DNA of 60,681 nt from Mustelus asterias (lineage: Eukaryota): assembly GCF_964213995.1 (NCBI RefSeq), contig NW_027591068.1:62001-122681 (forward strand), given 5' to 3'. This document shows, in pieces, positions 6,478-41,100 of this stretch (positions are counted from its first letter, which is position 1; every line of letters starts with the position of its first letter). The translations under genes were made by a program, and so were the position numbers. The notes beneath the pieces are model-generated. The model saw nothing but the letters and a program-made list of their open reading frames with translations, searched no databases and was not told the DNA's origin.

Positions 6478-6915
6478 ATGTGTTCCCTGTGTGCTTTACT
6501 GATAATAATGGCCACGCTGCCCGGTGAGTCTGAGTTCAAATCCTCAGTGTGTGTTTCATGGGTTATATTTGTTCACAGATTTCTCACACATTCTACATTT
6601 TGTTGCAGGAATCAATGGCCAAGATTCAGTTTCCCAGGACCCGGCTGAATTAACGGTTCAGGAAGGATTGAACGTAACAGTGAATTGTAATTACACAACA
6701 AAGGATGCTTCTCCAAATCTCTTCTGGTACATCCAGTATCCCGGGGAAGCTCCGAGATATTTACTGCAGAAATATGGCACGGGTGGCGGAGAAAAGTCTC
6801 CAGATTTCCCTGACCGGTTTTCGGCTGAATTGGACAAGGACAAGAGAACAGTTCCTTTAACAATCACCGGGGTCCATGTCTCTGACTGTGCCGTGTATCA
6901 CTGTGCGCTGAGCCC
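6478..6915 (+). CDS. TRAV/TRDV: TCR alpha/delta V segment V2 (open; YHC motif, extra Cys)
   Basis: Leader 6478-6523 (MCSLCALLIIMATLP g|GT). V exon 6609-6915: QDSVSQ..VNCNY..FWYIQ..SDCAVYHCALSP. Confidence 0.9.
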
Positions 6916-14233: not shown

Positions 14234-15678
14234 TGTGGTACATTGGCAGCGTCCCTGTCTTTCGAAGAGAAACTCCCAATTCAAGAGCAAAGTGAGGACC
14301 CGTTGGTGAAGGAACCAGCGGTTATGCTGCCGTTCCACGGTCTGATAATCAGTTATGGAATCCTTCGCACCATAGTTCAAAGGAAAGAACGTGTATTTGT
14401 GGCGAGGTGCTTCAAAAGTATTCCTGTCGCATTAGAGCAACGATACCAGCTGTCACTGTACATTCAGCTGAACAATCTTGAAGTATGAACACTTCCACTA
14501 ATGTCCGCAGGATTCATCTCAATGACACCTCTGTTTAAAATTAGCATCTACAGTGGGGTTAGTTATCGTTTTTACAATGAGCCATGATCTTCAGAGATTG
14601 GATTTTTTTCGAAGAGAGAATAATGTCAGCGCTTCCAGTAACTCGACACTCAGGTATTCAAAGCACGGGAGCAAAGTTCAGACAGCAGGTTGACGGTCCC
14701 CAGGGGATATGCAAAGCTAGTTCTCATTAACTACAATTAAATACCAGCCGGCTAGGAAACCCTTTCATTGTCACTTCCACCCATAAAAGAAATGAACAGA
14801 GCGCTGAGATGGTTACAGTGCAATAATTCAGAAAGCTGCTCTCAAAGTGGGCCGACGTTCTTCTGATGATTATTGACCTCTTTACCTTCTCCAAAATATT
14901 GAGGCAAATTGGGTTCAAGCATTCACCTTGGGATCCCAATGCAATTGAACGCAGTTGAACGTATACATGAGAGATAATCCCACCGTTACTTTAATTGCTG
15001 GCGTTTCGCTTTATTCAATTCATACTGGTTATAAAAGCTCATTCTAAACAATATGAAGCCATCAAGATTCCGATAAGATGCCTTCTTTAAAATAATAACA
15101 CAAGATGTAAATATGACTCTGGATTCACATTCACACTCTATATTCTTTAGTATTTACATTTAAATCTTTCCATCATAATGTTACCCCTTAAGTGCTGGTT
15201 ATTAACTTTGTCTACATTTGGTGCTCGAATAGAATGAGTAATTTAGTGGGCTCATTGAAATGGGAGAGTGGGAGAAATCGGATTGTCTGAACTCTGAACT
15301 CTAGGGAGAAGGGCAGAAAGATAAGAATGTAGAGCCAGTGCGAAGACAGAGACGGTCAGAAGCAGAGCAATGGGGGCGAGACAAACAGAGGCGGAATAAC
15401 AGAGCGAGATAGACAGGCCACAGACGGAGAGAGAGCCGGAGAATCTGAGAAAGACAGGGAGAAAGAGAAACTCAGAACTTATTAGTCGAGCGAACGCTGA
15501 TTGATGCCCGACGATCATCAATCCTGAGAAAGCGGCCAATCCTGTCGCTGGGAAACGCCCCATAATTTCTGAGTAAATTACGTTTCCGCTGATATGAATT
15601 TCCGCTTGAATATTAGAACAGAAATGTCAACACATTTCAAGTACTGCTTCATTTCTGCCGAACCCGAAACCAGACACC

Positions 15679-16222
15679 ATGTGCTCCTTACTTTGTTTGC
15701 TGATAATAATGGTCTTGCTGCCCGGTGAGTCAATAAACTCTGAAAAAGTGTCATCCTGACTTGAAACATTATCTCTGTTCGCCTCTCACAGATGTTGTCA
15801 GATCTACTGAAAATTTCGAGCATTTTCTTTTTTTGAGTCAATGTTTAAATGATCAGTGTCTGTCCCATGGGCTCTCTATCCCTCCCAGATATTGATTACC
15901 TTCTGTGTTTTGTTACAGGGGCAAAGGCTGAATATTCAGTGTTTCAAGATCGATCTGAATTATCGGTTCTGGAAGGACAGAACATAACACTGGACTGTAA
16001 ATACTCGACAGCTGCTTCTGAAACTATGTTCTGGTACATCCAGTATCCCGGGCAAGCTCTGAGATATTTGATGAAGATATATAGCTCGGGCAATACCGAT
16101 AAGTCTCCGGATTTCTCAGATAGATTCTCGGCTGCTTTACACAAAGGAAACAATACTGTTCCTTTAAATATCGCCAGAGCTGTTCTGTCCGACAGCGCCG
16201 TGTATTTCTGTGCCATGGAGCC
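15679..16222 (+). CDS. TRAV/TRDV: TCR alpha/delta V segment V5, apparently functional
   Basis: Leader 15679-15724 (MCSLLCLLIIMVLLP). V exon 15919-16222: ..ITLDCKY..FWYIQ..SDSAVYFCAMEP. Confidence 0.92.
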
Positions 16223-16260
16223 CACACTGGTACAGATGTTGCGAACCCCGCACAAAAACC
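16223..16260 (+). other. 22-bp-spacer RSS of V5
   Basis: CACACTG + 22 bp + ACAAAAACC. Confidence 0.9.
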
Positions 16261-16285
16261 CCAGACTGGGAGTTCCGGTTAGTGA

Positions 16286-16300
16286 TCAGCAGAGGGCGCT
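16286..16300 (+). promoter_or_regulatory. CTCF-like motif 25 bp downstream of the RSS
   Basis: TCAGCAGAGGGCGCT versus consensus CCASYAGRKGGCRS; also at 31079-31093. Confidence 0.6.
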
Positions 16301-17759
16301 CCCACACTGATAAACAGAAATAATTATTTTGTCTCGACAGTGATAGTCACAGGGTCATAAACAAAATATCAAAACAAAACAACACGAACGGCTGAGCCAC
16401 AGTTGAATTTTTAACTTGCAACTATACTAAAAATACATTTACAGTTCCTTAACTCACGCTTCAACCTTTGATGACATTTTCTTGCCTGTGTGAATTATTG
16501 TGCAGCAGTTTCCCCATCTTCACTCTCCTTTTCAAGGTCTCTTTGATCAAAGGGTCTATTTGATCAGAGTATTTTGCTGCCTAAAGGACAGCTTGTATTG
16601 GCATATACATTTCGCAAGATTGTCATTGTGCTATTTAAAACAATCACTGAGAACAAGTTGCCATCAATGTTCATTCTCATTTTGAATGTCTGTCAAATGT
16701 TTTCTGACACAATTCGCAACCCAGTGTTTCTCTGTTACAATAATCAGACCAGCGACTTCATTCCCACCCCTGGCCCTAACAATATAGTGATTTTCCTCAC
16801 AAGCACACTGAGAACCTCTCCAATCCAGCTACTCAGCTATTCGGTCCCACTTTCCATCTCCATCACTGATGAAGATTCCGCTTTGTATTGGATCATTTAC
16901 TAACCCTGACCTTCCTGGTGCGAGACTGCTGGTCCGCGCTATGGAATGAACATTCAGCTGCCGCTCCTACAGACAGGCAAATTTATATGATTTCCAATGC
17001 GATAGTGTTATTGAGTTCAATTCCTTGCAGATAAATTCTACCTCTCACCACACTGCCTATGGCAGCCACACCCACAGCTTTCCTGTGTTGTTCTCACTCT
17101 GACCTGCCTCATCTGTGTTGTTTTATTAGAGATTTTATTGTAGATATTGAGCTTTGCTGCTTTTCCCTGTTTGGCACCGATTGGATCAGCAGTCCAATGG
17201 GGTGGCAAGCTATACTTTCTCTCTGAAAGAGGATTTCACACGCGGCAAAGTTACAAATTGAGGGAAGATCGGATGGAAATATCACAGACTATTCATTATT
17301 CTATCACTTGTAAAGTACAAGTTTCAACTAAAAATTCATCCTCCCCCGCACCGTAGCTGCTATCCCAAACATGATTGATAACAAACTGCTTGACATGTTA
17401 CTGTAGGGATGAACATTGTCATTCTCCATGTCAGAACAGACCCATCAACACTCAGGGGACCGGTCGGTTCATGAAATAACTGTTGAAGAGGAAAATAATC
17501 CCCTGTCGTGGGATGGCCAACTTCACTTTGTTCCTTCCGTCTCTCCGCCTATGGGGTGAATTGGAGATAAAGGAGCTGTGAGACCATTGGTTGAACTGCA
17601 GAACAAAGGAGCTTGAATCCGATTGGATGTCATCTGATGTTTTCAGCAGTGAACCAATCCACAGGGACCCGGGTGTGACTCCGCCTCTTTCAACTCTTGA
17701 CTGAAACAATGACATCTCCCACCCGCTCTGGTCAGATCCGCCCCGAGCTCTCTGCAAAC

Positions 17760-18924: not shown

Positions 18925-19128
18925 TGTTTTTGTATAGGTTTCTGATCTCTGATTCACCGTGCCTCATTGCACTGTAATACACCGCAGAGTCTGACAGCTC
19001 AACCGAGTGAACAGTGAGAGTAGTGGAGCCTTTCTCACGGTCCACAGATACTTTAAACCTTCCCCCAGCTGTTTCATCTCTGAATGTGGATACGACATAC
19101 TCGGGAGCTTGATCGGTGGGTTGCCAGC
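18925..19128 (-). pseudogene. 5'-truncated paralog of the Cys-less V
   Basis: QPTDQAPEYVVSTFRD..SDSAVYYSAMR. RSS CACGGTG + 21 bp + ACAAAAACA. FR1/CDR1 lost next to a Penelope insertion. Confidence 0.85.
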
Positions 19129-22335: not shown

Positions 22336-22374
22336 AGTTATTGTACAGGCTCCTGATCTCTCTGTTTCACCGTG
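22336..22374 (-). other. 23-RSS of V7
   Basis: CACGGTG + 23 bp + ACAATAACT. Confidence 0.85.
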
Positions 22375-22655
22375 CCTCACGGCACTGTAATACACCGCAG
22401 CGTCTGACAACTCAACCGTGTTAACAGTGAGAGCAGTGGAGCCTTTCACACCGTCCACAGATACTGTAAACCTTCCCTCAACTTTTACATCTCTGAATGT
22501 GGATACGAGATACTCGGGAGGTTGATCGGTGAATTGCCGGTACCAGAACACAAAGTCATTTGCAGTGACAGTAACATTGTGGTGAAGGGAGACGGTCTGT
22601 CCCAGTTTTACCCGATTCACCGACATCTGAAATGTTTCCGAGTGACAAGGAACAT
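22375..22655 (-). CDS. Atypical TCR V exon V7: open frame, both canonical Cys absent, leader not found (ORF or pseudogene)
   Basis: Acceptor ttttgacAG, then DVPCHSETFQ..TVSLHHNV..FWYRQ..SDAAVYYSAVR. No stops; RSS intact. Confidence 0.7.
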
Positions 22656-22778
22656 CTGTCAAAATAAGAATACAATTAACATGAAGATACATACGGGGAT
22701 AAATAAAGTGCTTGCGTACATAGACGGAATTAACTAATCTATGCGTCTATCTATCCAAAGAACAAATCTACTTATTAT

Positions 22779-23300
22779 AGCTCGGGGGGGGAACAGCTCG
22801 GGGAGGGGGACAGCTCGGGGGGGGGGAACAGCTCGGGGGGGGAACAGCTCGGAGGGGGGGAACAGCTCGGGGGGGGGGGAACAGCTCGGGGAGGGGGACA
22901 GCTCGGGGGGGGAACAGCTCTGGGGGGGAACAGCTCGGGCGGGGGGACAGCTCGGAGGGGGGGAACAGCTCGGGGAGGGGGACAGCTCGGGGGGGGAACA
23001 TCTCTGGGGGGGAACAGCTCGGGGGGGGGGACAGCTCGGGGGGGGAACATCTCTGGGGGGGAACAGCTCGGGGGGGGGGACAGCTCGGGGGGGGGGAACA
23101 GCTCGGGGAGGGGGACAGCTCGGAGGGGGGGAACAGCTCGGGGGGGGGAACAGCTCGGAGGGGGGAACAGCTCGGAGGGGGGGGAACAGCTCGGAGGGGG
23201 GGGAACAGCTCGGAGGGGGGACAGCTCGGGGGGGAACAGCTCGGGGGGGGGGGAACAGCTCGGGGGGGGGGGAAACAGCTCGGGGGGGAACAGCTCGGGG
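22779..23300 (+). repeat. G-rich minisatellite (ACAGCTC G-run)n
   Basis: About 30 units of 16-19 bp; source of the spurious Gly/Pro-rich ORFs. Confidence 0.95.
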
Positions 23301-23894
23301 CTATCGATAGCCTGGTTCAGGACGTTTATTCTTAGATAGTTATTGACTAGAGCAACTCCACTGCTCTTCTTCAAAATAATGTCATTGTGCACTTTCACCT
23401 CCACCTGAGAAGGCAGTCGATGCCTTCGCTTCAACATCACTTTCGGCACCTTTGACAATTCACCATCCCCGGCAGAGTTCACTGCCGCATCTGAATGGAT
23501 CCTGGAACTGGCATCTCCTCAAATCTTCTGCTTCATAGGCGATAGAGCTAACAACTGAACATAGCTGGGCAAGCGGTGTGTGTAGATTCGCGTGTGTACT
23601 GTCACTTCTGAGATACTGACACCGTTTTGACAATGAATATATAGTTTATATTTACACATGCCGGGTTGATGCAACGGTTAATCGAGGTGATCAGCCTGAT
23701 AACTGAGAGATAGATAGGAAGCAGCCTCTCGGTGCCTCAGTCACTTTCCATCAGGGTCACCCAAGTACCTTCTCGGGTAGTTTTTCCTGAAAGAATCCGT
23801 GTGTCTTGTGGGGAGGAAAGAATCTCAGAATAGACTGAAGACTGAACCCTGGAATTCCCAGGAGGCAGTGACTACCCATAAACCCAATCATGGA

Positions 23895-25110
23895 TTAGAA
23901 CATAGAACAGTACAGCACAGAACAGGCCCTTCGGCCCACGATGTTGTGCCGAGCTTTATCTGAAACCAAGATCAAGCTATCCCACTCCCTATCATCCTGG
24001 TGTGCTCCATGTGCCTATCCAATAACCTTTGACATCACTTTCGGCACCTTTGACAATTTACCATCCCCGGCAGAGTTCACTGCCGCATCTGAATGGATCC
24101 TCACTTTCATCATAAGCCGACCATGGGGGACCTTATCAAACGCCTTACTAAAATCCATGTATATGACATCAACTGCCCTACCTTCATCAACGATAGGATT
24201 CGCCAGGACTCTGGTCCCAGCACGATTCAGACGAAGACCATCCCATCTGAACATGTTTCATCTTCCCCAATACTGGTGCCAATGTCCCATGAATTCAAAC
24301 CCATTCCTCCCACACCAATCTTTGAGCCACGTATTTACCTCCTTAATCTTATTGACCCTGTGCCAATTCGCTTGTGGCTCAGGTAGTAATCCAGAGATTA
24401 CCACCTTGTTGGTTCTGCTTTTTAATTTGGCTCCTAGCTTTTCATACTCCCTCTGCAGAACCTCTGTTCCTGTTCTGCCTATATCGTTGGTACCTACATG
24501 GACCACTACAACTGGATTCTTACCCTCCCACTCCAAGTTCCTCTGCAGCCCAGATGAGATATCCTGGACCCGAGAACCAGGCAGGCAACACAACCTTCGG
24601 GATTCTCGATCTTGGTCACAAAGAACAGTGTCAATGCCCCTAACTACACTATCCCCAATTACCACTACATTTCTTTTGTCTTCTTCCACCTGAACTGCTC
24701 CCTGTACCAAGGTGCCGGGGGCAGTTTGCTCGTCCTCCTTGCAGTCCCCGTTCCCATCCACACTGGGAGCAAGAATCTCAAACCTGTTGTACAGATTCAG
24801 GGACTGAGGCTCTTGCAACTCTACCTTCTGGATCCCAATTCCTGCCTCACTCGCAGCCACACCCTCTTGTCCCTGACCCCCGGCTGAATTAGTTAGTCTA
24901 AGGGGTGTGACTGCCTCCTGAAACACAGCGTCCAGGTAACTCTCCCCCTCCCAGATATGTCGCAGTGTCTGAAGCTCAGACTCCAGCTCATCAACCCTGA
25001 GCCGGAGTACCTCAAGCAACCAACACTTACTGCAGACATGCTCACTGGGAACCACAGTGGGGTCCACCAGCTCCCACATCATGCAGGAACAACACATTAT
25101 TTCCCAAGAG
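23895..25110 (-). mobile_element. Internally deleted CR1 LINE: ORF1 (Cys-rich N-terminus + SGNH esterase), RT fragment and 3' tail
   Basis: CCSCMMWE..VCSKC, coiled coil, VVVIGDSVVRG..VVVHVGTND. Then DEGRAVDVIYMDFSKAFDKVPHGRL. CR1 tail at 23895-24025. Confidence 0.9.
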
Positions 25111-25541
25111 GAGGTAAAGTTTTGCCCCCTCTCTCGTCGGGAATGAGAAATTCCTCCTGAATACACTCAACAAATTTCGCTCCATCCAACCCTTTAATAC
25201 GATGGCTGTCCCAGTCAACCTCTCACACAGTTTCACTTCAAATGCCCAAAGCGAGAATCATGCCCCTCGACCAATGAGCCTACGCAACCGGCGCTTTCAC
25301 CGAAATATAACTGGTTTGCTTGTATCCAAAGCAGCTCAGAAATCCTTGGTAAAAGCCCGAAATTGTTGAACAAACGCAGCACGTTAGTATTTTGCTAACT
25401 CGACTGTTTGGAACTGGGCGCTGTCGTGTATAAAATACAGATGTTACCCGCTACACTACACAAAGAATGTCGAGCGCCAAACTGAATGAACGTGAATATT
25501 TTCTTATGAGTCCACCTCCTCCAAAGACAACCTTTTCCCAG

Positions 25542-25706
25542 ATATGGGTCACTGAGATTCTGTCACTCAGCCGCTGTCCTCAGCAGTAAAGTAAGAAGTC
25601 TCACAACACCAGGTTAAAGTAAGAAGTCTCACAACGCCGGCATCTCCACATCATCTCAGCAGTAAAGACAGAAGGAGAAGCGGTGACTTTACAATGTATC
25701 TATAAT
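25542..25706 (+). pseudogene. V FR1 fragment (V4-like) disrupted by a 64-bp Penelope remnant
   Basis: ttcccAG|DMGH*DSVTQPLSSAVK[insert 25591-25654]TEGEAVTLQCIYN. TSD CTCAGCAGTAAA at 25579-25590 and 25655-25666. Confidence 0.75.
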
Positions 25707-25844
25707 ATTAAATGTTACTCTCTGAAAAGGGGAAAAATCCAAACATATCAACTGAGTCGCCTTTGTACCTTCTTGTTTGTAAGGAAAATAAACCAAATTA
25801 ATCTGTTGATCCCTGGCATTATTCTGATTTATAACCATAAGCCT

Positions 25845-26160
25845 TTAAGACGATAAGATATAGGAATAGCATTAGACCATTCGACCCATCGAGTCTGCTC
25901 CGCCATTCAATTGTGGCTGCTAAGTTTCTCATCCCCGTTCTCCCGCCTTTTCCCGGAAACTTTGATCCCCTTACAAATCAAAAACATATCTACTCAATGA
26001 CCTGACCTCCACATCCTTCTGTGGCAATGAATTCCATCGATTCACCACCCACTGGCTGAAGAAATTCCTCCTCATCTCTACTTTAAAGAATCGTCCCTTT
26101 ACTCTGAGGCTGTGCCCTTGGATCCTCGTCTCTCTGACATGGAAATATCTTCCCCAGCAC
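25845..26160 (-). mobile_element. CR1 LINE 3' fragment
   Basis: GHSLRVKGR..EMRRNFFSQWVVNRWNSLPQ plus tail. Confidence 0.85.
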
Positions 26161-26678
26161 CGCGCACTTTTCCCAAAGTCTTGGAATGCTCTGGACTTCG
26201 GTGTACCCGGGATTTGAACAGAGAATTCCAGCAATGATGCCCGCATCATTTTACGATGTAAGTAGGAAACGTAACAAGGACTTTCTACAGAGCACCCATT
26301 CGGATTCCTGGGCAGCATTTGCGCCTTGGTCTGTGTTGGAGTAAACCCTGAATCGACTCAACAGCCAAATGCGAACTTGCATTAAACAACATTTGTCAGC
26401 AGAGGGCGCCAATCTCGAGCCCGGTTTTGGAGTGGGGAGGGATGTCGGGGGAGGGGCGGTGCTACAATCTCACGTGACATTATCACTGGAGCCTGTATGG
26501 ATGGTAGGCTGCTGAGGTCACAATAGACTCCACTTCCCCTCCCCACACTCACACCCACACAGACAAACTGACTCACACTCACTCACACTGCAATCAACGG
26601 AGCAGAGCCTGGGTTCCCGCTCCCTTCCTCACTCTCTGACTCCTCCATTCTCACTCACTGGAATAAATCCACTCGGAC

Positions 26679-27166
26679 ATGTTTCTGATCATTCTGCTGG
26701 CGCTCTTGCACAGTAAGTACCGGACAACGTTCATCAAACCACGGAAACATATTTATACACAAAGATGCCAATTTAATTAACCATCAAAAATATCCATGTG
26801 AGGTGGAGATGGGAGGTTCCACAAACTATAAATTGACATGAACTCTTGATATTTCATTCCTCTACCTTTACAGGCGGACTGTGCGCAGATCCAGTAACTC
26901 AGTCACCGGTGACAATAACAGCATCAGAAGGGGATTCGGTGCAGTTGGATTGTAACTATACAGACAAGGAAATGAGCTTCATGCAATGGTATCAGCAGAA
27001 ACCGGCACAGCCACTGAGAGGGATTATTACCACAACATTAGTAGTGAAGGAAAATAAAGTTTTAGGACGATATCTGGCGGCTGCTGACAAGTCCACACAG
27101 AGCGGCTCCCTCAATATAAGCGCCCTCAGTTTGGAGGACGGGGCGGTCTATTACTGTGCAGTGAGG
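26679..27166 (+). CDS. TRAV/TRDV: TCR V segment V8 (alpha-like, divergent family), apparently functional
   Basis: Leader 26679-26712 (MFLIILLALLH a|GTAAGT). V exon 26874-27166: DPVTQSP..QLDCNY..MQWYQQKP..EDGAVYYCAVR. Confidence 0.93.
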
Positions 27167-27205
27167 CACAGTGTTGGGTTACAGCGAAAACCCTGTACAA
27201 AAACC
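27167..27205 (+). other. Consensus 23-RSS of V8
   Basis: CACAGTG + 23 bp + ACAAAAACC. Confidence 0.97.
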
Positions 27206-27284
27206 TCAGCGAGTATTTACAACTCCATGAAGATGTTTTGATCACGAGTTCACGAAGGCGGCGATTCTATTTACCAGACAATTT

Positions 27285-27661
27285 GACCTTGTTCAAATCA
27301 TCATAGAAGCACTTTGGTAAATCTCGAGATTAAACCCCATGCCGCGATTTATATAGTAAGCAGATACCAGGAGTATCGAGCTATCAGCTGAAGGATGCGC
27401 TCAGAAGTGGAGGTAATATAGCAGAAAATTACCGGCTGTTCATCCAGAATTGTTAACTCAGCTGAGCCCACGGACACCGACTCCTCGGCATTCGTTCCTA
27501 TAACTCAATGCAGAATGGATCAAAGTCTGCTGAAGTTCATAACAAATGAGATGTAGAATAACCTCCACACAGACTCACTTAGCAACACGACTATTGTTAT
27601 AAATCCGGGACACAGAGACTCACCTCGCAGCACGAAGATAGTCTATTCCCACAGCTGACAT
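27285..27661 (-). pseudogene. V relic of the V2/V5 family with degenerate leader
   Basis: Leader relic 27661-27624 ending GAG|GTGAGT. Exon from 27497: GTNAEESVSVGSAELTILDEQPVIFC..SRDLPKCFYDDLNKVK (compare V2 SPDFPDRFSAELDKDK). Confidence 0.65.
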
Positions 27662-27689
27662 TGGTGTATTGTGTGGTGGTGAACTGCCT

Positions 27690-28260
27690 TCTTGTGGTCC
27701 CTGATGTGCAGGTACACACACTGTGCTGTTAGTGAGGGAGTTCCAGTGATTTGACCCAGTGACCGTGAAGGAACATCGATATATTTCCATGTAGGGATGT
27801 AGAATAACTTGGAAGGGAACCTCGAGGTTGTGGTGTTCCCATGTGCCCGCTGCCCTTCTTCTCCTAGATGGCAGTGCTCGTGTGTTTGGATTGTGCTGCC
27901 TAAAAAAAAACCTTGGTGAGTTGCTGCAGTGTATCCTGCAGATGGTGCACACGGCTGTCACTGTTCGTCTGTGGTGGCAGGAATGAATGTTCATGCAATG
28001 GGTAGCAATCAAGCGGGCTGATTTGTCCTGCATTCTGTCGAGCCTCTCGAGTGTGGTTGCAGCTACACTCATCCAAGCAAGTAGAGGGTATTCTATCTCA
28101 TCCCTGAATTGTACCTTGTAGATGGTGGACAGGCTTTGGGGAGTCAGGAGGTGAGTTCCTCGCCGCGGGATTCCTAACCTTTGATCAGCTCTGGAAGCCA
28201 CTGTATTTATATTCCTGGGTCCAGTTCAGTTTTCTGTCAACTCCCAGGATGTTGATGGGG
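27690..28260 (-). mobile_element. Non-LTR retrotransposon RT C-terminal fragment (CR1/L2 group)
   Basis: LGIPRR..LSTIYKVQ.R..IEY..LAW..TTLERLDRMQDKSARLI. Confidence 0.75.
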
Positions 28261-29179
28261 TGGTGGTTGAATATCTGTTAAGTCCCATCTCATGTGTACC
28301 CATATACAGATGGATAGACATAAGATGGTTGCCTGGCACACAAACAGTCACCTGGGAAAGAGACATTAAAGTCAAATCGGTTCTCTAGTGTCGTCCCTCT
28401 ATTCTGGGGTTGTGTGCCGTGTGCTAGATTCTCCTACTAATGGAAATATCTTCTCCACATCCACTCTGTCCAGGATTTTCAGTCTGCTGTATTTTTCAAT
28501 GACATTCCCCCCTCATCTCTCTAAACTCCATCGAATGCAGATCCAAAGTCCTCAGCTGTCTGCGGTTTTATTTGATCGGCCTAACACGCTCAGATTGAAT
28601 GTTATTTATTTTTTGTGACGGTTTCTCAAGAACACTAATCTCATTGTGCGTGACCTGGTGACGCTGAACTCTTCGTCCTCCGCGGTAGATTTCAGGGGGT
28701 TGCGATTGTAAATAAAACAATACGCGATTTGTACAACAGTGGATTTAGATGTTGATCCCGTGAGGGGAATAAATGCAGCAACACAGAAAGCTTCAAGCTG
28801 AGGAATGAAGATAAACAAAGAACAAAGAACAGAGAACAGTACAGCACAGGAAACAGGCCCTTCGGCCCTCCAAGCCTGTGCCGCTCATTGGTCCAACTAG
28901 ACGAATGGAAAGACAGTGGGTGAACTCGAGGCCGAGACCGTGATAGAAGTCAAGGCACAGATTAGGAGGAACAGATGGAGTTACAGGGATATAAACACGA
29001 GGAAAGGGAATGAGAGAAATGTGCGAGAGGCAAGGAGATAAATAGAGGGACAGACAGTAAGATAAATGAGGGAGAGACGGAGACAGGAAGGGAAATAGAT
29101 GAAGGTTCGGTGAAGGAACTGTGAAGGGAGCAGTTGCAGATTTATGGAGACAGTACAGACGAAAACATAAAGAGAGAAC

Positions 29180-29366
29180 AAAGATGTGCGGGTTCGGTTG
29201 ATTGGCCGTGCTAAAAAATGCCCTTAGTGTCCTGAGATGTGTAGGTTAGAGGGATTAGCGGGTAAATGTGTAGGGATATGGGGGTAGAGCCTGGGTGGGA
29301 TTGTGGTCGGTGCAGACTCGATGGGCCGAATGGCCTCTTTCTGCACTGTAGGGTTTCTCTGATTTC
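29180..29366 (+). mobile_element. 5'-truncated HE1-like SINE
   Basis: Matches 540-720. Confidence 0.8.
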
Positions 29367-30472
29367 TCCATCTGTTCCTCCTAATCTGTGCCTTGACTTC
29401 TATCACGGCCTCGGCCTCGAGTTCACCCACTGTCTTTCCATTCCTTTACCTTCATTCCTTAACACAACATAATATAACATAGTACATGATACCGACAGGA
29501 TTATTTCCGAGAGCTTCTGGACGCCCGAGGAAACCAGATCAACAACATAACCGCCTCGTAAAGCTTCCCGGACCCGCTGCAGTAAACACACAAACATGGT
29601 GAGGCACCGCCATCTGGCGGCAATCTGAGGTAACTGGTCATTTCCTGCAAAATCATCGAATTCTCAAATTACAGAAGGTCGCTACTACTGGTGATTATGT
29701 TGCATTATTCTTGTTCATCCTTTTACTATTCCAATGCAATTGAACACAGTTGAACGTATACATGAGAGATAATAACATCGTTATTTTAATTGCTGGCGAT
29801 TCGCTTTATTCAATTAATAGTGGTTATAAAACTCATTCTAAACAATATGAAGCCCTCAAGATTCCGATAAGATGCCTTTTCTAAAATGACAACACAAGAT
29901 GTAAATATGACCCTGGATTCACATTCATTTCCTATATTCTTTAGTTATTTACATTTAAATATTTCCATCATAATTTACCTCGCAACTTCTGGTTATTAAC
30001 GTTTTCTACATTTGTTGCACCAAAAGAATGAGTAACTTAGTGGATTCATTGAAATAAGAGAGTGAGGGAAATCGGATTGTCTGAACTCTGAATTTTAGGG
30101 AGAAGGGGAGAAAGATAAGAATGGAGAGCCAGTGCGAAGACAGAGACGGTCAGAAGCAGAGCAATGGGGGTTAGACAAACAGAGGCGGAATGACAGAGCG
30201 AGATAGACAGGCTCCAAACGAAGAGAGAGCAGGGGAATCTGAGAAAGACAGGGAGAAAGAGAAACTCAGAACTTATTAGTCGAGCGAACGCTGATTGATG
30301 CCCGACGATCATCAATCCTGAGAAAGCGGCCAATCCTGTCGCTGGGAAACGCCCCATAATTTCTGAGTAAATTACGTTTCCGCTGATGTGAATTTCCGCT
30401 TGAATATTAGAACAGAAATGTCAACACATTTCAAATACTGCTTCATTTCTGCCGAACCCGAAACCAGACACC

Positions 30473-31015
30473 ATGTGCTCCTTACTTTGTTTGCTGATAA
30501 TAATGGACTTGCTGCCCGGTGAGTCAATAAACTCTGACAAAGTGTCATCCTGACTTGAAACTTTATCTCTGTTCGCCTCTCACAGATGTTGTCAGATCTT
30601 CTGAAAATTTCGAGCATTTTCTTTTTTTGAGTCAATGTTTAAACGATCAGTGTCTGTCCCATGGGCTCTCTTCCCTCCCAGATACTGAGTGTGTTCTGTG
30701 TTTTGTTACAGGGGCAAATGCTGAAGATTCAGTGTTTCAAGATCGATCTGAATTATCGGTTCTGGAAGGACAGAACGTAACACTGGACTGTAAAAGCTCG
30801 ACAGCTGCTTTTCAAACTGTGTTCTGGTACATCCAGTATCCCGGGCAAGCTCTGAGATATTTGATGAAGATATATAGCTCGGGCAATACCGATAAGTCTC
30901 CGGATTTCTCAGATAGATTCTCGGCTGCTTTGCACAAAGGAAACAATACTGTTCCTTTGAATATCGCCAGAGCTGTTCTGTCCGACAGCGCCGTGTATTT
31001 CTGTGCCATGGAGCC
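30473..31015 (+). CDS. TRAV/TRDV: TCR alpha/delta V segment V9 (paralog of V5), open
   Basis: Leader 30473-30518 (MCSLLCLLIIMDLLP). V exon 30712-31015: ..VTLDCKS..FWYIQ..SDSAVYFCAMEP. Confidence 0.9.
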
Positions 31016-31053
31016 CACACTGGTACAGATGTAGCGAACCCCGCACAAAAACC
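31016..31053 (+). other. 22-bp-spacer RSS of V9
   Basis: CACACTG + 22 bp + ACAAAAACC. Confidence 0.9.
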
Positions 31054-32722
31054 CCAGACTGGGAGTTCCGGTTAGTGATCAGCAGAGGGCGCTCCCACAC
31101 TGATAAACAGAAATAATTATTTTGTCTCGACAGTGATGGTCACAGGGTCATAAACAAAATATCAAAACTAAACACAACACTCAACACGAACGGCTGAGCC
31201 ACAGTTGAATTTTTAACTTGCAACTATACTAAAAATACATTTACAGTTCCTTAACTCACGCTTCAACCTTTGATGACATTTTCTTGCCTGTGTGAATTAT
31301 TGTGCAGCACTTTCCCCATCTTCACTCTCCTTTTCAAGGTCTCTTTGATCAAAGGGTCTATTTGATCAGAGTATTTTGCTGCCTAAGGGACAGCTTATAT
31401 TGGCATATACATTTCGCAAGGTTATCATTGTGCTATTTAAAACAATCCCTGAGAACAGGTTGCCATCAATGTTCATTCTCATTTTGAATGTCTGTCAAAT
31501 GTTTTCTGACACAATTCACAACCCAGTGTTTCTCTGTTTCAATAATCAGACCAGCGACTTCATTCCCACCCCTGGCCCCAACAATATAGCGATTTTCCTC
31601 ACAAGCACACTGATTATATCTCAGCTTGGGTTATTTCTGCTCACTGGAAGCCAGGTCTCCAGCTTCAGGGCTAAAAACACCACTGCGACACATGTTTTTT
31701 TTATTTCAAAAATATACTTTATTCACAAAAAAAAACTCTCCAATAAAACATTGCAAAATGACAGATCCAAAGGTCATAAACAGTGCAAAAAAGAATCATT
31801 TTTACAGTACAATACAGTGCTTATTTACAAAAACATTACATTTTGTTACATTTCATTTCTTAAAACTATATACATGTGTCAGAGTTTACTGTGTGCCGTT
31901 ATTTTTCAGGTTGGCACACAGTTACTCAGGCCGAGGGTATTCTGCAGTTACCCGGCCCTCGGTCTGCCTCGGTTGAGACGGGGTGGGGAGGGGGAACTTC
32001 AGATAGGCAATTGTGGAATAAACACATTTAAAGTAATTTCCCAACCGTGATTTCAACCTAAAGTTTAAACACACTCCGATATGATTGATTCGGGTTTGAA
32101 CATGTATTTCAGATCTGAGTCATGGAAATTATGTCACTTACTTATTGTCCTCAAATGATGAGACAGAAAAAGAAGTAGTTTTTTTTACAAGTTTCAACTA
32201 TGACATTGCAAGGATTGTCTTTGTTTTATTCTGGAACTCACTGATCAATATCAGCTTTATGATATTGAACTGCGCTCGCAGGGAGTCTTACTCATGTTTG
32301 CAGACAATCGTGAAACAAACAACAGCAACAGCACCGGTCAGGCAGCCAAACCTCTCCATCTCCAGCTGGAGAAATTGGACTCTGAAGAGTTGATCAGAAT
32401 AAGGACTCACTTACGGAATTTATGATGGAAACCAATCCAACCCCGCACTTTGCATTGTGTTCGGGAGCTCCTGTCTGTCGGATTGTAAAATAGTAATTGC
32501 TTAGCGTTGCAAAGCCAATGCAGAGAGCGGACTGGCCAAGCCAGAATCCATCTCCTCATTGCCCCCAAAACCAATTCAAATTGAATCTAATTCATGGTCC
32601 TCGCAAAAAATCCAAGCTGACATGAAAGAGCATCGCACCTGATCTTGGACTCGATTTGATGCTTGATTCGAGCCCAAAGACCGAGGTGCCTGCTTTCTGT
32701 TTTAGTTATATCCAATCAAAAA

Positions 32723-33112
32723 CCAGGGGAACTGGATTAATTGTTAGATTACACAGTGATATGTCACAGAGCAGTAATCCAGGGGAACTGGATTAATTGT
32801 TGGATTACACAGTGATATGTTACAGAGCAGTAATCCAGGGGAACTGGATTAATTGTTAGATTACACAGTGATATGTTACAGAGCAGTAATCCAGGGGAAC
32901 TGGATTAATTGTTAGATTACACAGTGATATGTTACAGAGCAGTAATCCAGGGGAACTGGATTAATTGTGAGATTACACAGTGATATGTCACAGAGCAGTA
33001 ATCCAGGGGAACTGGATTAATTGTTAGATTACACAGTGATATGTTACAGAGCAGTAATCCAGGGGAACTGGAGTAATTGTTAGATTACACAGTGATATGT
33101 CACAGAGCAGAA
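32723..33112 (+). repeat. 56-bp tandem repeat, 7 copies, each containing CACAGTG
   Basis: Unit CCAGGGGAACTGGATTAATTGTTAGATTACACAGTGATATGTYACAGAGCAGTAAT. Heptamers at 32752, 32808, 32864, 32920, 32976, 33032 and 33088. Confidence 0.95.
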
Positions 33113-33950
33113 ATGGATGTTAAGTTTGCTGATGACACAACGATAGATTGGAAAATAAATGGTGATGAGGATGTAAGGGGACGATGAAGGGACATAAGTA
33201 GTTCAGTGAATTGGCAAAGCTTCGCCAAATTGTGTTTAATGTGGGCGGATGTGAAAATGTACATTTTGGCCTGATGAATATAAAATACACTTAATAACTA
33301 AATGGTGCGAGATCACAACATTCTGAGGGACAGAGGGATTGGGCCGTCCTTGGGCATGAATCAAAAGGGGCTAATATACAGGTACAGCAATTAATCAGAA
33401 ATGTCATGAAATGTTACCATTTATGACGAGGGAATGAATTATTAAATAGGAAGGGTCAGAAATTCCTCAGATATAGGAGCAGATTTAGGCCATTCGGCCC
33501 ATCGAGTCCGTTCCGTCATTCGATCATGGCTGATATGCTCCTCATCCCCATTTTCCTGCCTTCTCCCCATAACCCTTCAACCCATTACCAATTAAAAATC
33601 TGTCTAACCCCTCCTTAAATTTACTCACTGTCCCAGCCTCCTCCGCTCTTTGGGGTAGCGAATTTCACAGATTCACAACCCTTTGGGAGAAGTAGTTTCT
33701 CCTCAACTCTGTTTTAAATTTGCTGCCCCTTATCCTAAGACTGTGACCTCTCGTCCTAGAATGTCCCAGAAGAGGAAGCATCCTCTCCACGTCTACTTTA
33801 TCCGTACCTTTTATCATCTTGTCAGTGATCTCTCATTCTTCTAAATTCACGCATGTTTCCATTGTGCAAGGCACTGGAGAGACCACATCTGGAGTATTGT
33901 GTACAATACTTGATTCCTTATCTATAGAAAGATGGTAATGTGTTAGAAAA
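33113..33950 (+). mobile_element. CR1 fragment (paralog of 3047-3490) with a nested inverted CR1 3' end at ~33465-33845
   Basis: VKFADDTTI..; homology to 3047+ resumes after the nested piece (GAGACCACATCTGGAGTATTG). Confidence 0.8.
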
Positions 33951-36140
33951 CTGCCCCAGGCTCCTGTGAATTCCTCCAACTGGTATTTAATGTAGACTTG
34001 AATTGATTTATTTTAAAACGGTTTTTTTTAAACATATTGAGACTGGCCTGAAAGTGGTAGACTGGGGACTATCACACAGATGCTCTCAATCTGATGGTGT
34101 GGTGGTATTGTCACTGGACTGGGAGCCCAGAGTCCGAGGGTAATGCACTGGGCAGCCAGCTTCCAATCACACCACAGCAAATAGTGAAATCTCAATTCAA
34201 TAAAAATCTGTCATTAAAGGTCTGGTGATGACCATGAAACCATTGCCGTTAAAACCCATTTGGTTCCCCGATGCCCTTCAGAGAAGGAATTTATCCGACT
34301 CCAGAATAAGACCAGAGGATGCTGGAAAATCTCAGCAGGTCTGGTAGGACCTGTAAGTCTTTCATGTGAATCCAGGTCCACACGATGTGGTTGACTCTGG
34401 AATGGCCCAGCAAGCAAGCTGCTCAGTTCAAGGGCAGTTAGGGATAGACCGCAAGCAAGGAACTGGGAACAATCTGCACTAAATATTGGCCAGTTATTTT
34501 CAGTCTGGAAATGTAAAGCTGCCGTTTCGCTCTCAGTCAGGAACAGATCCCAGTTTTACACCAATCTCTGATTTAACAGCACATTGGAGAGCTGGTGCAG
34601 ACACGATGGGCCAAATGGCCTCCTGCACCAACACTATTCTGTGAAATCTTAGAAAAACAGGGAAATGCTGGAATTAAACTCAGCAGGTTCGGCAGCATCT
34701 GTGCAGAGAGAGAGAGAGAAACAGAGTTAACATTTCAGCTCTGTGACCTTTCCTGTGAACTGGGGAAAGTTCGAAATGTAACAGGTTTGGAGAAAGGGGC
34801 GGGTGGGACAGGGACTAAAGGAAGGTCTGTGAGAGGGTGGAAGACAGGAGAGATTGAATGAGAGAAAAGTGAACCCCCCCCCCCCCCAACCCGAGCCAAA
34901 GGGAATGGAGATGGAGCGAGAGAAGGAACAGAGAAACAGAAGCTGTGTCTGGAGCAGGGGGGCTGCCGACTGAAAGAAAGAAAAATGAAACAATCAAAGA
35001 AAAAGAAGCAGAACGGGCTGAGAGTTCACTCTCTGAAACTGTTGGACTGAATCTTGAGTCCAGAAGGCTGTAAAGTGTGGAGGGGGTGGGTGAGTGGGGG
35101 GGATGTTCTCCTGGACCTGCTCCAGACCCTGGTTAAAACAGTAACCAGTAGATCCAGGATGGGGGGGGGGGGGGGTCACTCTGGCTGATCTGCTGTGGTC
35201 TTGTCTGTGCCCAGCTCAATCTGATCTGTGCAACTCAAACACACTGGAGAGTGTTTGATAGGAAATGAAGATTGTGAATCTAACTCAGTGTGTGAACTCC
35301 CTCAGAGGCTCCCACACTGCATTCCAACAAACTGAGCTGGATTGGACTGAATGGGAAGTCATGGGAATGTAGCCCTCACTGACTTCATGCATCAAGTACA
35401 TTTCTGGATGGAAATTAGCTGCATCGACTCCAGCCTGGTTGTTGGTGTGAAACAGGAGCTGATGTCTATCTGTGTGTGTGTGTGTGAGTCCCTGCGTGCA
35501 GCTCCCAGAGAGTTTAAAATCCTGCATCTGTCTCTCTGCAGAGCTGCTGGTTAAAGACACACTTACAGCATTTATCAGACAGAAACTTCACTCTCATTCT
35601 CTCCCTCCCCTCCCCCAGCCAGTGCTTCTGTTTAAAAAACAGTTTAAACGCTTTATGTTGCAGCTCTGATCTCTGGTGAATCATTAACCACACACACACA
35701 TTCAGACACCCGGACAGACAGATTGTAAATCAGAAGTGGCAGTTGTAAATGCAGCAACAAAGAACTTTGCAAGATATTGTTTCAGTTCAGGCAACTTAAG
35801 GAAAAGTGAATTTTGCAAGAATCAGCAAAGGGTGCAAACCTGTAGCCGATGGAGTCCTGGATGAACAAGTTGTACAATCCACATTCAGACCTGGCCTCTC
35901 TCTCTCTCTGGCAGTGCAGGGCTGCGAGTTAATTGAAACCCATCTTCTCTCAGCTCCCAGTGCTGGTGATGTGAAGCTGGGAGTGGGGGGGGGAGGGAGA
36001 GCCTTGGGATAAACCATTTGCCTGGTGCTCACTAACCCCCACACACACAAACACCCCCCACACACTCAGAGACAGGTTGGTGTTGGACTGGCCCATACCT
36101 GGAGGAGGTGTGTTCAGGTGAGGTGTAGGAGATGTGGTTG

Positions 36141-36229
36141 GATAAGGATTGATTGGGGAGGTGTGGGACTCAGTGAGGTTATAAAAAGGCTGGCGATGCA
36201 TTGTCCAGTCTCTCTCTACACGTGGGTTG
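36141..36229 (+). promoter_or_regulatory. Candidate TATA promoter and short non-coding first exon
   Basis: GATAAG 36141, reverse CCAAT 36152, GGTGTGGG 36160, TATAAAAA 36180, donor TG|GTAAGT at 36229/36230. Confidence 0.45.
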
Positions 36230-36360
36230 GTAAGTATCAGGTAAGCTGTGTCTTTGTGACTGAGTGAGTCAGTGTGTGCTTGCATGGAGTTCCAGCTCTG
36301 ATATTTTAACCCCCCCTTTCCCAGCACAAAACCCCTGGCCAAGGATCTGTCTCCCCCACC

Positions 36361-36416
36361 ATGGGAGAGGGGATGGAAGGAGTTGGAGAGATCACCGAGG
36401 GAAAACATGTGCGATG
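36361..36416 (+). CDS. Candidate first coding exon of an unidentified gene
   Basis: Acceptor cctttcccAG (36324), Kozak CCACCATGG, MGEGMEGVGEITEGKHVR, donor TG|GTGAGT. Confidence 0.35.
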
Positions 36417-37101
36417 GTGAGTATGAACCTCTTCACTTTCTGTCTACACCTTTCCCACCTCAGCCCTGCTTTTCTCTCTGTTTGCAGCCTCCTCTCAATC
36501 TCCCTCTCCATCTTTCTCTCTCTCAACCTTTCTCTCTCTCAATCTCTCTGTCTTTCTCTCTCTAAATCTTTCTCTCTCTAAATCTNNNNNNNNNNNNNNN
36601 NNNNNNNNNNNNNNNNNNNNNNNNNNNNNNNNNNNNNNNNNNNNNNNNNNNNNNNNNNNNNNNNNNNNNNNNNNNNNNNNNNNNNNNNNNNNNNNNNNNN
36701 NNNNNNNNNNNNNNNNNNNNNNNNNNNNNNNNNNNNNNNNNNNNNNNNNNNNNNNNNNNNNNNNNNNNNNNNNNNNNNNNNNNNNNNNNNNNNNNNNNNN
36801 NNNNNNNNNNNNNNNNNNNNNNNNNNNNNNNNNNNNNNNNNNNNNNNNNNNNNNNNNNNNNNNNNNNNNNNNNNNNNNNNNNNNNNNNNNNNNNNNNNNN
36901 NNNNNNNNNNNNNNNNNNNNNNNNNNNNNNNNNNNNNNNNNNNNNNNNNNNNNNNNNNNNNNNNNNNNNNNNNNNNNNNNNNNNNNNNNNNNNNNNNNNN
37001 NNNNNNNNNNNNNNNNNNNNNNNNNNNNNNNNNNNNNNNNNNNNNNNNNNNNNNNNNNNNNNNNNNNNNNNNNNNNNNNNNNNNNNNNNNNNNNNNNNNN
37101 N

Positions 37102-38180
37102 CCTCCTGGGCTTTGCCCCCCCCTCCTGGGCTTTGCCCCCCCCTCCTGGGCTTTGCCCCCCCCTCCTGGGCTTTGCCCCCCCCCTCCTGGGCTTTGCCCC
37201 CCCCCTCCTGGGCTTTGCCCCCCCCCTCCTGGGCTTTGCCCCCCCCCTCCTGGGCTTTGCCCCCCCCCCTCCTGGGCTTTCCCCCCCCCCTTCCTGGGCT
37301 TTCCCCCCCCCCTTCCTGGGCTTTGCCCCCCCCCTCCTGGGCTTTGCCCCCCCCCTCCTGGGCTTTGCCCCCCCCTCCTGGGCTTTGCCCCCCCCCTCCT
37401 GGGCTTTGCCCCCCCCACCCCTGGGCATTGCCCCCCCCGCTTGCCCGCCCCCCGACTGCCCGCCCCCCGACTGCCCGCCCCCCGACTGCCCGCCCCCCGA
37501 CTGCCCGCCCCCCGACTGCCCGCCCCCCGACTGCCGCCGCCCCCGACTGCCCGCCCCCCGACTGCCCGCCCCCCGACTGCCCGCCCCCCGACTGCCCGCC
37601 CCCCGACTGCCCGCCCCCCGACTGCCCGCCCCCGACTGCCCGCCCCCCGACTGCCCGCCCCCGACTGCCCGCCCCCCGACTGCCCGCCCCCGACTGCCCG
37701 CCCCCCGACTGCCCGCCCCCCGACTGCCCGCCCCCCGACTGCCCGCCCCCCGACTGCCCGCCCCCGCTTGTTCCCCCCCCCCCGAGCTGTCCCCCCCTCT
37801 CAGACCCGCCCTGACCAATTCCTCTGAGACCCTCCAGTCCCACCAGGATTTCACCCCCCCTCCCCCCAAATCCCAGCCCTATCCATAGGGGCCCCTCCCC
37901 AGCTCCTGAACTCCTGTCCCCAAAACCCACCCCCACCGACAGACCCAAACCCCACCCCCACCGACAGACCCAAACACCACCCCCACCGACAGACCCAAAA
38001 CCCACCCCCACCGACAGACCCAGCCCCCACCGACAGACCCGAACCCCACAGCCACCCCCACCGACAGACCCGAACCCACCCCCACCGACAGACCCGAACC
38101 CCACCCCCACCGACAGACCCGAACCCCACCCCCACCGACAGACCCGAACCCCACACCCACCGACAGACCCAACCCCCACT
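37102..38180. repeat. Three adjacent C-rich minisatellites (~21, ~15 and ~23 bp units)
   Basis: (CCTCCTGGGCTTTGCCCCCC)n, (CCCCGACTGCCCGCC)n, (CCCCACCGACAGACCCGAACCCCA)n. Confidence 0.92.
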
Positions 38181-41100
38181 GAGCCTAATCCCCCCCGACT
38201 CCTGAACCCACTCCCAATCCTAAACCTGCCGCACTCAATCTCTCACCCCCAAATTCCCCTCTCCCCTCCAGGTTCCCCACCCCCCAAAACCCCCTTTAAA
38301 TCCCCACTGCCCAAACCCACTCTCAGTCCCTCCACTTAAACCCCTCTGAACCTCCCCTCTGCCCAATCTCTCTCTGCCCCTCCTCCCGATCCTCTCTGCC
38401 CCTCCCCTGATCCTCTCTGCCCAATCTTCTCCAATCCCAATTCCCCCCCCCCCCCCCACTCCAGCCAAATCTGTTGTCCCTCCTCACAATCCCTCTAAAT
38501 CTCCCGATCCTTCCCTCTGAGCCCCGTACCCCGCTCCCCCACTGCCCAAACCATCTTCAAAGCCCCCCGGCTGAATATCCCTCTAAGTTCCCCTCTTTCC
38601 CCCCACCCCTCTCAACCTGGCAAATTCCCACTCCCTCCCTGTGAACAGCCTCTGGACTGACAGATCCCCCCCCTTCTAATTAGTAACCCCCCCCCCCCCC
38701 CCCCCCCACCACACATCTATCCCCGTCCACCACCCCCTGTAAACAGCTCATGGTGGAGTTGGATGTGGAAACTCTGCCCATTTTAAACATTAACGTTCAA
38801 ACGACTAATTCCCCTGACACTGAGCAGCCTGTGTTATAACATCCCGCACCCCCATCCTGTACAACAGACCCCCTGTCTGATTCCCCCCCCCCCCCTCAAT
38901 TGCCCCCTTTCTCTGATAACCCCTGACTCTGGTCAGCCTGTGTTATAATATTCCCCCCTCTTGTACAACAGCCTCCCCCACCAGCCCCTTCCCTCTCTGT
39001 CTAATAGCCCCTGGCTCTGAACAAGCCCCTGTATTACACACTCCCCCCTTTCAGCAGTGCTGAATCCCTCTGAATTGCCCCCGATTCCCTCCCTCTGCGT
39101 TCCTGGGCCTTTGCTGCTTGTGAACAGCAAACCCGTGATCTGGCCCGTCCCCCACGAGAGAGCAGAGAGGGAGATAAGAGGCAGAGAAGCAGAGAGATAT
39201 AGAGATGGAGTTAGAGAGAATGCTACTGTAATTCAGACAGAATGATTCACAGAGAGAGGGAAGCAGAGATCAGATACAGAGAGAGATAAGAGGCAGAGAG
39301 ATATAGAGATGGAGATAGGATGCGACTGTAATTCAGACATTGATTCACAGAGAAGGGAGGGAGCAGAGATAAGAGACAGAGATATAGAGATGGAGTTAGT
39401 GAGGAATCTGCTGTGATTCAGACAATGATTCACAGAGAGAGGGAAGCAGAGAACAGATAGAGATATAGAGACAGAGGATGCTACTTTAATTCAAACAGAC
39501 TGAGTCAGGGGGAGGCAGAGATAGAGAGAGGGGGAAGCAGAGAGAGATAGAGAGAGTCAAGCAGATAGCTAGAGAGATAAGACAGAGAAGCAGAGTTAAA
39601 GTTCAAATTTTATTCGTCACAAGTAGGCTTACATTAACACTGCAATGAAGTTACTGTGAAAAGATGGAGATAGAGAGAATGCTGCTGTACTTCAGACAGA
39701 ATGAGTCAGAGAGGGAGCAGAGATAGATAGAGCGAGAGAGAGATGGAGAGGAGGCTGCTGTGATTGAGATAAAATGATCCACAGAGAGGGAGAGAGAGAT
39801 GTGCAGAGAGGCTGAGATACAAAGTGAGATGTCGAGATAAATAGAAAGTGGGGCTTTGGCAAGACAGTGACAAAGTTTCAGAGAGAGAGTGAAAGATAGA
39901 GAGAATGAGAGAAAAGGGAGAAAGATGCTGCCATTTTGAGAGGCTGAGGTATAAAGGATGGGGAGAGACAGGGATTGGAAAGATGTGGAGAAACAGTTCT
40001 GAGGATGGGGGAGTTGCACAGACAGAGCTTCAGGGAGAGGGATTGAAATCTGGGATTACATTGGAGCAGGGATCACTGGGAATACCCCCTCCCCCTGACA
40101 CACAGACCACTAACCCTCCGTGTAAAAGCCCCACCAGTCTATCTGTGAATAAAAATGAACGACCAAGACACGGGGACTTTTATTAATATTTTTCTCTCTG
40201 GTTATAGCTCTTGTCCGAGGATTCCTCACGGCAAAACTATTCGCTCTCTGCATCGCCAAAGTTTCCAAAGGAATTCTCCTTGGAAGAGAGAAAGAGAAAA
40301 TAAAGTGAAATTTGATTAAACACAAAACAAAAGCTGATTTAAAAACAATAAAAGGCACAGCAAGATCCCAGGACTTGCTGAAATTCACAATCTCACTGGG
40401 GGAGGTGGGGGAAACATTCATTTTCACCTCCTCATTATTAAACCCTGACAAAATGGGAACACGTTTCAAATGCAATGAACTTCCAACTGCCTCCTGACTG
40501 TCCCGATATTGAATTTATTAAACACGTCAAAGCATTCTGGGGGCTTTACTCCAGAGACAGGCCAGTGAAAAAACACAGGAGGCCCCAATGAAGTTCCCAC
40601 TTCTATCAGTCACCTCTCTCCCCTCACTCTGTTTCTCCCTCTCCGTCTCTTACACACTTCCCCCCAGATCTCTATCTGTCCAATACCCCGTCTCTGCTCC
40701 TGTCTCTGGATAACCTGTCCTGATCTCTGCTCTGTTTCTCTATCTCGAGGCGAATCTGGATTGAAATGCTCTCTCTAAGTTTCTGTCTGACCGTTTAAAA
40801 TAAAACTCACAATCAAAAGGGAAATGAGAAGGGGGCGGGAGCTGGAAAATCCACAATCCCACCCTGAAGCGGCTGCTTCACATTTTATTGAACCATTGAA
40901 TTCAGCCACTTAAACCCTGTTGGGGAATTAAGCGAATGCAAAAGTGCTGCTGAGATTTAGGCCGTGAAGTGAGGCCTAGTCACAGAGGCTGCATTATTCC
41001 TCCGGTAGAAAGAACAAACCCCCCTCTCTCCCACCCCCCAGTTAAACAGAACAATCTTCTCCATCCACACCCACAAATCCCAGCGCCCTGTCTAAAAACA

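Follow-up and report, generated by a model that had tools for sequence, protein, structure and literature searches.

Our preferred explanation, to which we give about an even chance of being right, is that V7, an open V exon on the minus strand of the window (the whole 60,681-nucleotide stretch of the Mustelus asterias genome analyzed here), is a copy of an ancient, leaderless TCR alpha/delta V lineage of sharks that lacks both canonical cysteines, and that this lineage likely continued to provide a working protein after the loss, probably by joining of its 23-RSS to a J segment and with the use of a borrowed leader. The intradomain disulfide between the two canonical cysteines normally staples the V domain. 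We refer to the Cys-less lineage as VB, and to the Cys-bearing V that precedes most of its copies, and whose leader may be borrowed, as VA.

The V7 exon, which starts with the last leader residues (L-part2), runs from 22655 to 22375 on the minus strand, directly after the splice acceptor TTTTGACAG. This is a phase-1 acceptor with a pyrimidine tract (22656-22692, minus strand; acceptor end at 22656), the AG of which is retained in all lineages examined. V7 has an open frame, scores above the cut-off of the Pfam V-set profile, and is predicted to resemble TCR chains; on the basis of this profile, its Foldseek matches and its clade with short-CDR2 V segments, it is a V-set domain closest to TCR alpha V. 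The conserved Trp is present in the motif WYRQ (codon 22543-22545). In the alignment, a His codon (CAC, 22579-22581), followed by an N-x-T sequon, takes the first-Cys position, and a Ser codon (AGT, 22384-22386) takes the second. His is separated from the Trp by 12 residues, as is Cys in Cys-bearing relatives, and is therefore a substitution; a two-codon deletion of the first Cys is ruled out by this unchanged spacing. As in TCR alpha/delta V segments, the exon is followed by a putative 23-RSS, CACGGTG-23-ACAATAACT (22336-22374, minus strand), which is identical in L001-L010 and L014. The V7 nonamer deviates from the consensus at two positions; ACAAT-type nonamers are common to VA, VB and a related Cys-bearing V segment (L008:1027-1065, L069:2925-2965), so that the non-consensus nonamer looks like a trait of the clade. 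The two replacements, WYRQ, the open frame, the acceptor and the 23-RSS had all been described in the initial annotation, and each of them is confirmed on the minus strand. By the features that IMGT demands of a functional V, V7 has the conserved Trp, the open frame and the acceptor, and has neither 1st-CYS nor 2nd-CYS (His and Ser instead) nor its own leader exon; neither such an exon nor a promoter for V7 was found within the window. The same annotation had pointed to a paralog at 18962-19128. It does read YYS, and 39 of 54 residues (72%) are identical, but it is a relic: only the 3' half of a VB (18925-19128, minus strand) is left, repeat DNA has replaced the 5' half, and the RSS spacer is 21 bp, not 23 bp.

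A family search in the same genome, in which 150 of 1114 candidates were scored, yielded at least 17 full-length VB copies, two 5' halves and seven 3' halves; a DNA search then added two copies, an interrupted one on contig C128 and a flank-only one on contig C842. Both canonical cysteines are absent from all 17 full-length copies among these scored candidates, with His (16 copies) or Tyr (one copy) at the first-Cys position, and Ser (13 copies) or Arg (four copies) at the second; Tyr is found at the first position only in L014 and in the C128 copy. Identity to V7 is 97-100% in eight copies, which are either uncollapsed haplotypes or segmental duplicates. P0002, a protein found only in Logan, represents a further copy without the cysteines and is close to L017. 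None of the 215 other V domains that span both positions (profile matches) lacks both cysteines, which argues that the double loss in V7 is more than chance; one cysteine is missing in 36 of them (the first in 29, the second in 7), some of these cases being alignment artefacts. Three VB copies lie on contig C71 with an array of 31 J segments of the TCR alpha type, which have a 12-RSS and FGxG, at 18.37-18.42 Mb (G000:C71:18370000-18417000, L098-L102), and this J linkage indicates that the VB copies sit in the TCR alpha/delta V field, which is scattered in elasmobranchs (PMC12227049).

The lineage is also present in other sharks. The Heterodontus francisci (horn shark) model XP_067869830.1 consists of a leader and a VA, followed by a VB in which His and Ser recur at the two positions, the frame is open, and residues match the heptamer. 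V7 and the horn shark VB are identical at 62 of 92 residues (67%), a degree of conservation that equals that between the Cys-bearing VA and the horn shark VA (55 of 85); it should be noted that this VB is known from one predicted gene, and that being an ORF is what brought it to light. The lineage of horn sharks separated from that of other sharks roughly 200 or more million years ago. The shared His and Ser indicate that the loss of both cysteines is ancient and preceded this split, and thereby also the duplication before which the initial annotation had placed the loss; the horn shark model is also the kind of Cys-less chondrichthyan ortholog that it had suggested looking for. The Scyliorhinus canicula (catshark) model XP_038644554.1 has a VA and then a VB with His; the start of this VB reads like a shifted frame of the VB of M. 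asterias, and the copy thus appears to be frameshifted. The same model (P0003) fuses IgH V-J-C1-C2 to VA and VB, the cassette adjoining an IgH cluster there, and this fusion is probably a prediction artefact. Horn shark, catshark and the majority of the copies in this genome keep the N-x-T sequon beside the His; this sequon is also common in the ordinary V segments of the genome. VB forms one clade in phylogenetic trees (100/99). In a tree of 94 columns, for which 10 of 26 Cys23-less domains and 32 of 136 Cys-bearing ones were used after de-duplication, it lies inside a starred clade together with VA and Cys-bearing short-CDR2 V segments from other vertebrates, and apart from the clade that holds 8 of the 10 included Cys23-less matches. 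Judged by Tyr23 alone, the latter clade would be TRAV1-like, and the double loss in VB appears to be independent of the Cys23 loss in teleosts. Many matches (P0026, P0029, P0036, P0046, P0112 and others) are V domains of the bony-fish type with Tyr for Cys23, often in tandem, and likely represent a much expanded TRAV1-like lineage.

Whether these domains were selected after the loss is not a question that whole-gene rates can answer here. Whole-gene dN/dS ratios among paralogs range from 0.5 to 1.9, i.e., about 1, and omega=1 is rejected neither for the whole gene nor for the framework, an outcome of the codon models that rests on likelihoods and pairwise ratios; the tree length is 0.61 for codon positions 1+2 and 0.50 for position 3. 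However, this test, which the initial annotation had proposed, does not discriminate, because two of the three conventional control families with both cysteines (F1 and F2) also fail to reject omega=1, and only the deeper F4 rejects it. More can be learned from a core set of the 22 most conserved positions, derived from 332 unrelated V domains with the two Cys columns excluded. Under a simple model of our own of neutral mutation on the V7 exon, applied to pairs that share branches and to a sample in which ascertainment favors intact copies, V7 and the horn shark VB differ by two core changes (both Val/Ile) where 7.4 are expected (P=0.002), V7 and L014 by four where 7.8 are expected (P=0.034), and V7 and L017 by three where 8.6 are expected (P=0.002). 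V7 and L009 form the youngest informative split, and none of their 11 changes falls in the core (2.7 expected, P=0.028). No protection is seen between V7 and the stop-bearing L011 (6 observed, 7.1 expected, P=0.36), and core protection is not significant in the catshark fragment of 49 residues (P=0.24-0.36). At core codons, pN is 0.00-0.12 and pS 0.06-0.38 in six pairs of open copies, whereas outside the core pN is about equal to pS. Moreover, six stops and short indels are observed versus 13.7 expected at the rate of the spacer (P=0.017; 11 rows, L019 and C128 included, with four large truncations or insertions outside the model). Since none of the sequences compared has the cysteines any longer, the core constraint postdates their loss, which points to selection at the protein level having acted on the Ig core afterwards.

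These figures make it rather improbable that V7 is an ordinary old pseudogene, dead since the cysteine loss and preserved by slow substitution in sharks and by 3' gene conversion with other V segments. Such a pseudogene would show a whole-gene omega of about 1 and could do without a leader, as observed, and 21-24% of neutral runs yield a stop-free pair at this distance between V7 and the horn shark VB. In addition, Cys104-to-Ser is a one-step change that also occurred in an unrelated dead V on contig C1085 (L053:607, minus strand), which reads YYS where its stop-bearing sibling in the window, ending near 13005, reads YYC; this second-Cys loss indicates an independent event in a dead gene, and that the change alone is cheap. 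Yet the changes in the open copies are not blind to constraint, those in L011 being so, and core codons do carry synonymous changes. Omission of the ten 3' codons, the place where gene conversion could act, together with a CpG-biased null leaves the protection in place (0 radical core changes, about 4 expected, P=0.002-0.004), and the deficit of stops and indels likewise argues against death at the time of the loss.

A little more probable, though still unlikely, is that VB was once selected as a disulfide-free protein and is now decaying in every lineage present here, V7 looking intact because its clade is young. All lineages beyond the V7 and L009 groups are damaged: L011-13 and L015 have a stop and a 17-bp RSS spacer, L016-17 have a broken heptamer (CAAGGTG), L018-26 are truncated, the C128 copy has frameshifts and an insertion, and loss of the Trp is also among the damage. 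VA is missing from L014 and from the window copy, and L009 and L010 are without the CRE-type motif described below. The breakage of most lineages, often along with their VA, is what ongoing decay would produce, as are the whole-gene omega and the apparent frameshift in catshark. Decay does not sit well, however, with a youngest split that is free of core changes, with V7 and L009 both keeping frame, acceptor and RSS, or with the promoter motif and leader that seven sibling cassettes retain. The proposal of the initial annotation that the family works or worked without the disulfide is supported in part, by the Ig-core constraint after the loss. The window copy is without leader or promoter, and the cited paralog is dead.

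Most VB copies are located about 470 bp behind a VA that contains both cysteines and comes with a CRE-type motif, a leader exon of 20 codons and a 23-RSS of its own; hence, the cassette reads CRE-type motif, leader, VA, RSS, about 470 bp of spacer, VB, RSS. VA is retained in seven of eight V7-type (near-identical) copies and is absent from the window copy. Neither this leaderless tandem nor the absence of a leader and promoter from the window copy had been noticed in the initial annotation. No convincing leader was found by an ATG..GT scan of five VA-VB spacers, nor a convincing J (FGxG motif) or good RSS in seven of them, and the CRE-type motif is absent from the spacers. The donor of the VA leader and the VB acceptor are both phase 1. 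In contrast, the donor at the VA end (in the heptamer) is phase 2, so that splicing through VA would be out of frame; an in-frame VA-to-VB splice was considered and rejected, because inside VA there are only weak and unconserved phase-1 GT sites. Under our preferred explanation, (i) RAG would join VB to (D)J through the VB 23-RSS, (ii) the VA promoter would drive transcription, (iii) the phase-1 donor of the VA leader would splice to the phase-1 VB acceptor with VA being skipped, and (iv) the VB domain would fold without a disulfide, His and Ser being predicted to pack in the core beside the Trp. No rearranged VB-J-C protein was present among the matches of protein searches that scored 8000 candidates at the longer lengths, covered lengths outside 162-216 and used a representative library that hides members more than 50% alike, and a VA protein search at near length gave no match. 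In other places the cassette is incomplete: in L080 (C842) and L076 (C436), VA and spacer are retained but the VB exon is gone from approximately the acceptor onward, the C842 VA being intact, and at L050:1501-2700 a distant decayed VA is followed, instead of VB, by what by eye looks like a G-protein-coupled receptor-like fragment on the other strand.

VB might instead be a selected protein with a single-exon leader of its own, translated from an ATG that precedes the acceptor by 36 bases, or be spliced behind VA into a chain of two V domains, and we rate these options together as about as doubtful as the pseudogene. The window copy does have an in-frame ATG (22692, minus strand) that could encode a short hydrophobic peptide, an ATG with a hydrophobic run occurs in five of seven copies compared and in P0002, and chicken TRAV1 genes with single-exon leaders have been described (PMC10972964). 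However, pyrimidine tracts yield hydrophobic peptides by default, the spacers do not have the CRE-type motif, and the acceptor AG is retained everywhere. As for a two-V chain, VA is joined to VB in both foreign gene models, but the joins differ between the two, VA has no J-encoded strand, and the phase-2 donor at its end does not fit the phase-1 acceptor. It is very unlikely, and much more so than the foregoing, that VA-VB is a third, independently evolved two-V-domain TCR chain after NAR-TCR and TCR-mu, in which a disulfide-free VB would be joined to J as the supporting domain and an unrearranged VA would be spliced in front of it.

In the window, only a remnant of the spacer is left (22693-22783, minus strand). 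Homology to sibling copies stops at 22783, and a 16-bp satellite (22779-23300) takes the place of the spacer, VA, leader and CRE-type promoter motif. Overall, about 18 kb (22781-41190) replace the 2.2 kb with VA that are found at the C741 sibling; this region contains 29728-31613, a 94.7% duplicate of 14933-16811 with its V. Read contigs of four runs, which behave as DNA (no joints) and drop rare variants, pass 22780 into the VA spacer in three runs and bridge into the satellite in none, and one X2 read contig runs unbranched through spacer and VB. This indicates that the join at 22780 is either a private variant or a misassembly. As assembled, the window copy, without leader or promoter, would be silent, and the copies that might be used are those in the seven sibling cassettes; the object of interest is the VA-VB cassette of the sibling contigs and of other sharks, more than the window copy.

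Modeling of the fold, another check suggested in the initial annotation, gave a normal V fold that matches TCR chains (AlphaFold, pLDDT 88), with TCR structures as the top Foldseek matches (TM about 0.8). The prediction nevertheless says nothing about stability, because 19 of the 24 alignment rows are Cys-bearing and the J strand is absent. His and Ser are polar residues at a buried site; that they fill the core beside the Trp, and that the N-x-T sequon helps, are guesses.

A disulfide-free TCR V is not unprecedented. The salmonid TRAV1 subgroup, which has no 1st-CYS 23, is conserved in many teleosts, expressed and productively rearranged, with TRAV1-1 joins to 72 of 118 functional J segments on record (PMC8559430). 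Like VB, TRAV1 is a TCR alpha V that is unable to form the intradomain disulfide and is conserved across species; unlike VB, it has Tyr23 and keeps Cys104 (PMC8559430), whereas VB is without both cysteines (His, Ser) and without a leader. Tyr at position 23 is found in VB only in the L014 and C128 copies mentioned above, and Cys104 is not kept. The use of the leader of an upstream V, as proposed for VB, has a parallel in mouse, in which the TRBV12-2 leader was spliced to TRBV13-2 in 46,029 of 69,248 transcripts (10.64898/2026.01.30.702900). For VB, such borrowing would be obligatory. TRBV13-2, by contrast, has both cysteines and also a leader of its own. A V that follows another V is known from the supporting V-delta of NAR-TCR and the supporting V of TCR-mu (PMC3457774). 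In VA-VB, likewise, a V with a leader is followed by one without, in the TCR alpha/delta locus of sharks. The supporting V in NAR-TCR is leaderless as well. However, VA is not IgNAR-like, its best solved relatives being TCR alpha chains and scFv with no VNAR among the 60 matches listed, and neither a D nor a J separates VA from VB; with no FGxG motif or good RSS in the seven spacers, we rejected VA-VB as a NAR-TCR cassette. Among antibodies, the natural ABPC48 VH misses one conserved cysteine, and disulfide-free scFv have been evolved from it (PMC5734687). This is a single antibody without one cysteine, and not a conserved germline lineage without two. Under the IMGT scheme, VB would be filed as 'ORF', the class for an open frame with changed conserved residues (PMC8559430), but its replacements are common to shark orders and its core appears constrained.

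We found no report of a germline V lineage without both cysteines, leaderless and in conserved tandem with a normal V, in a search that lay outside the main nurse-shark TCR papers and their alignment figures, where a prior mention is possible. The parts consulted of PMC5278385, PMC7615758, PMC2190937 and PMC5931798 contain nothing on Cys-less V domains, and two supplementary files of PMC12227049 do not name the two shark gene-model accessions. The disulfide between the B and F strands serves to define which antigen-receptor V genes count as functional, and VB would therefore be discarded by annotation pipelines and by tools for repertoire analysis that anchor on the second cysteine. If expressed, VB would be a germline TCR V lineage that occurs naturally with neither cysteine and with an obligatory borrowed leader, kept since the horn shark split; it would reveal what stabilizes a V domain in the absence of the bond, which would be of use in the design of intrabodies, and would show that sharks and teleosts lost the bond independently. 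Elsewhere in the window, the V at 6621-6915 has an extra cysteine directly before the second canonical one (DCAVYHC), at a position that is Ser in its relatives.
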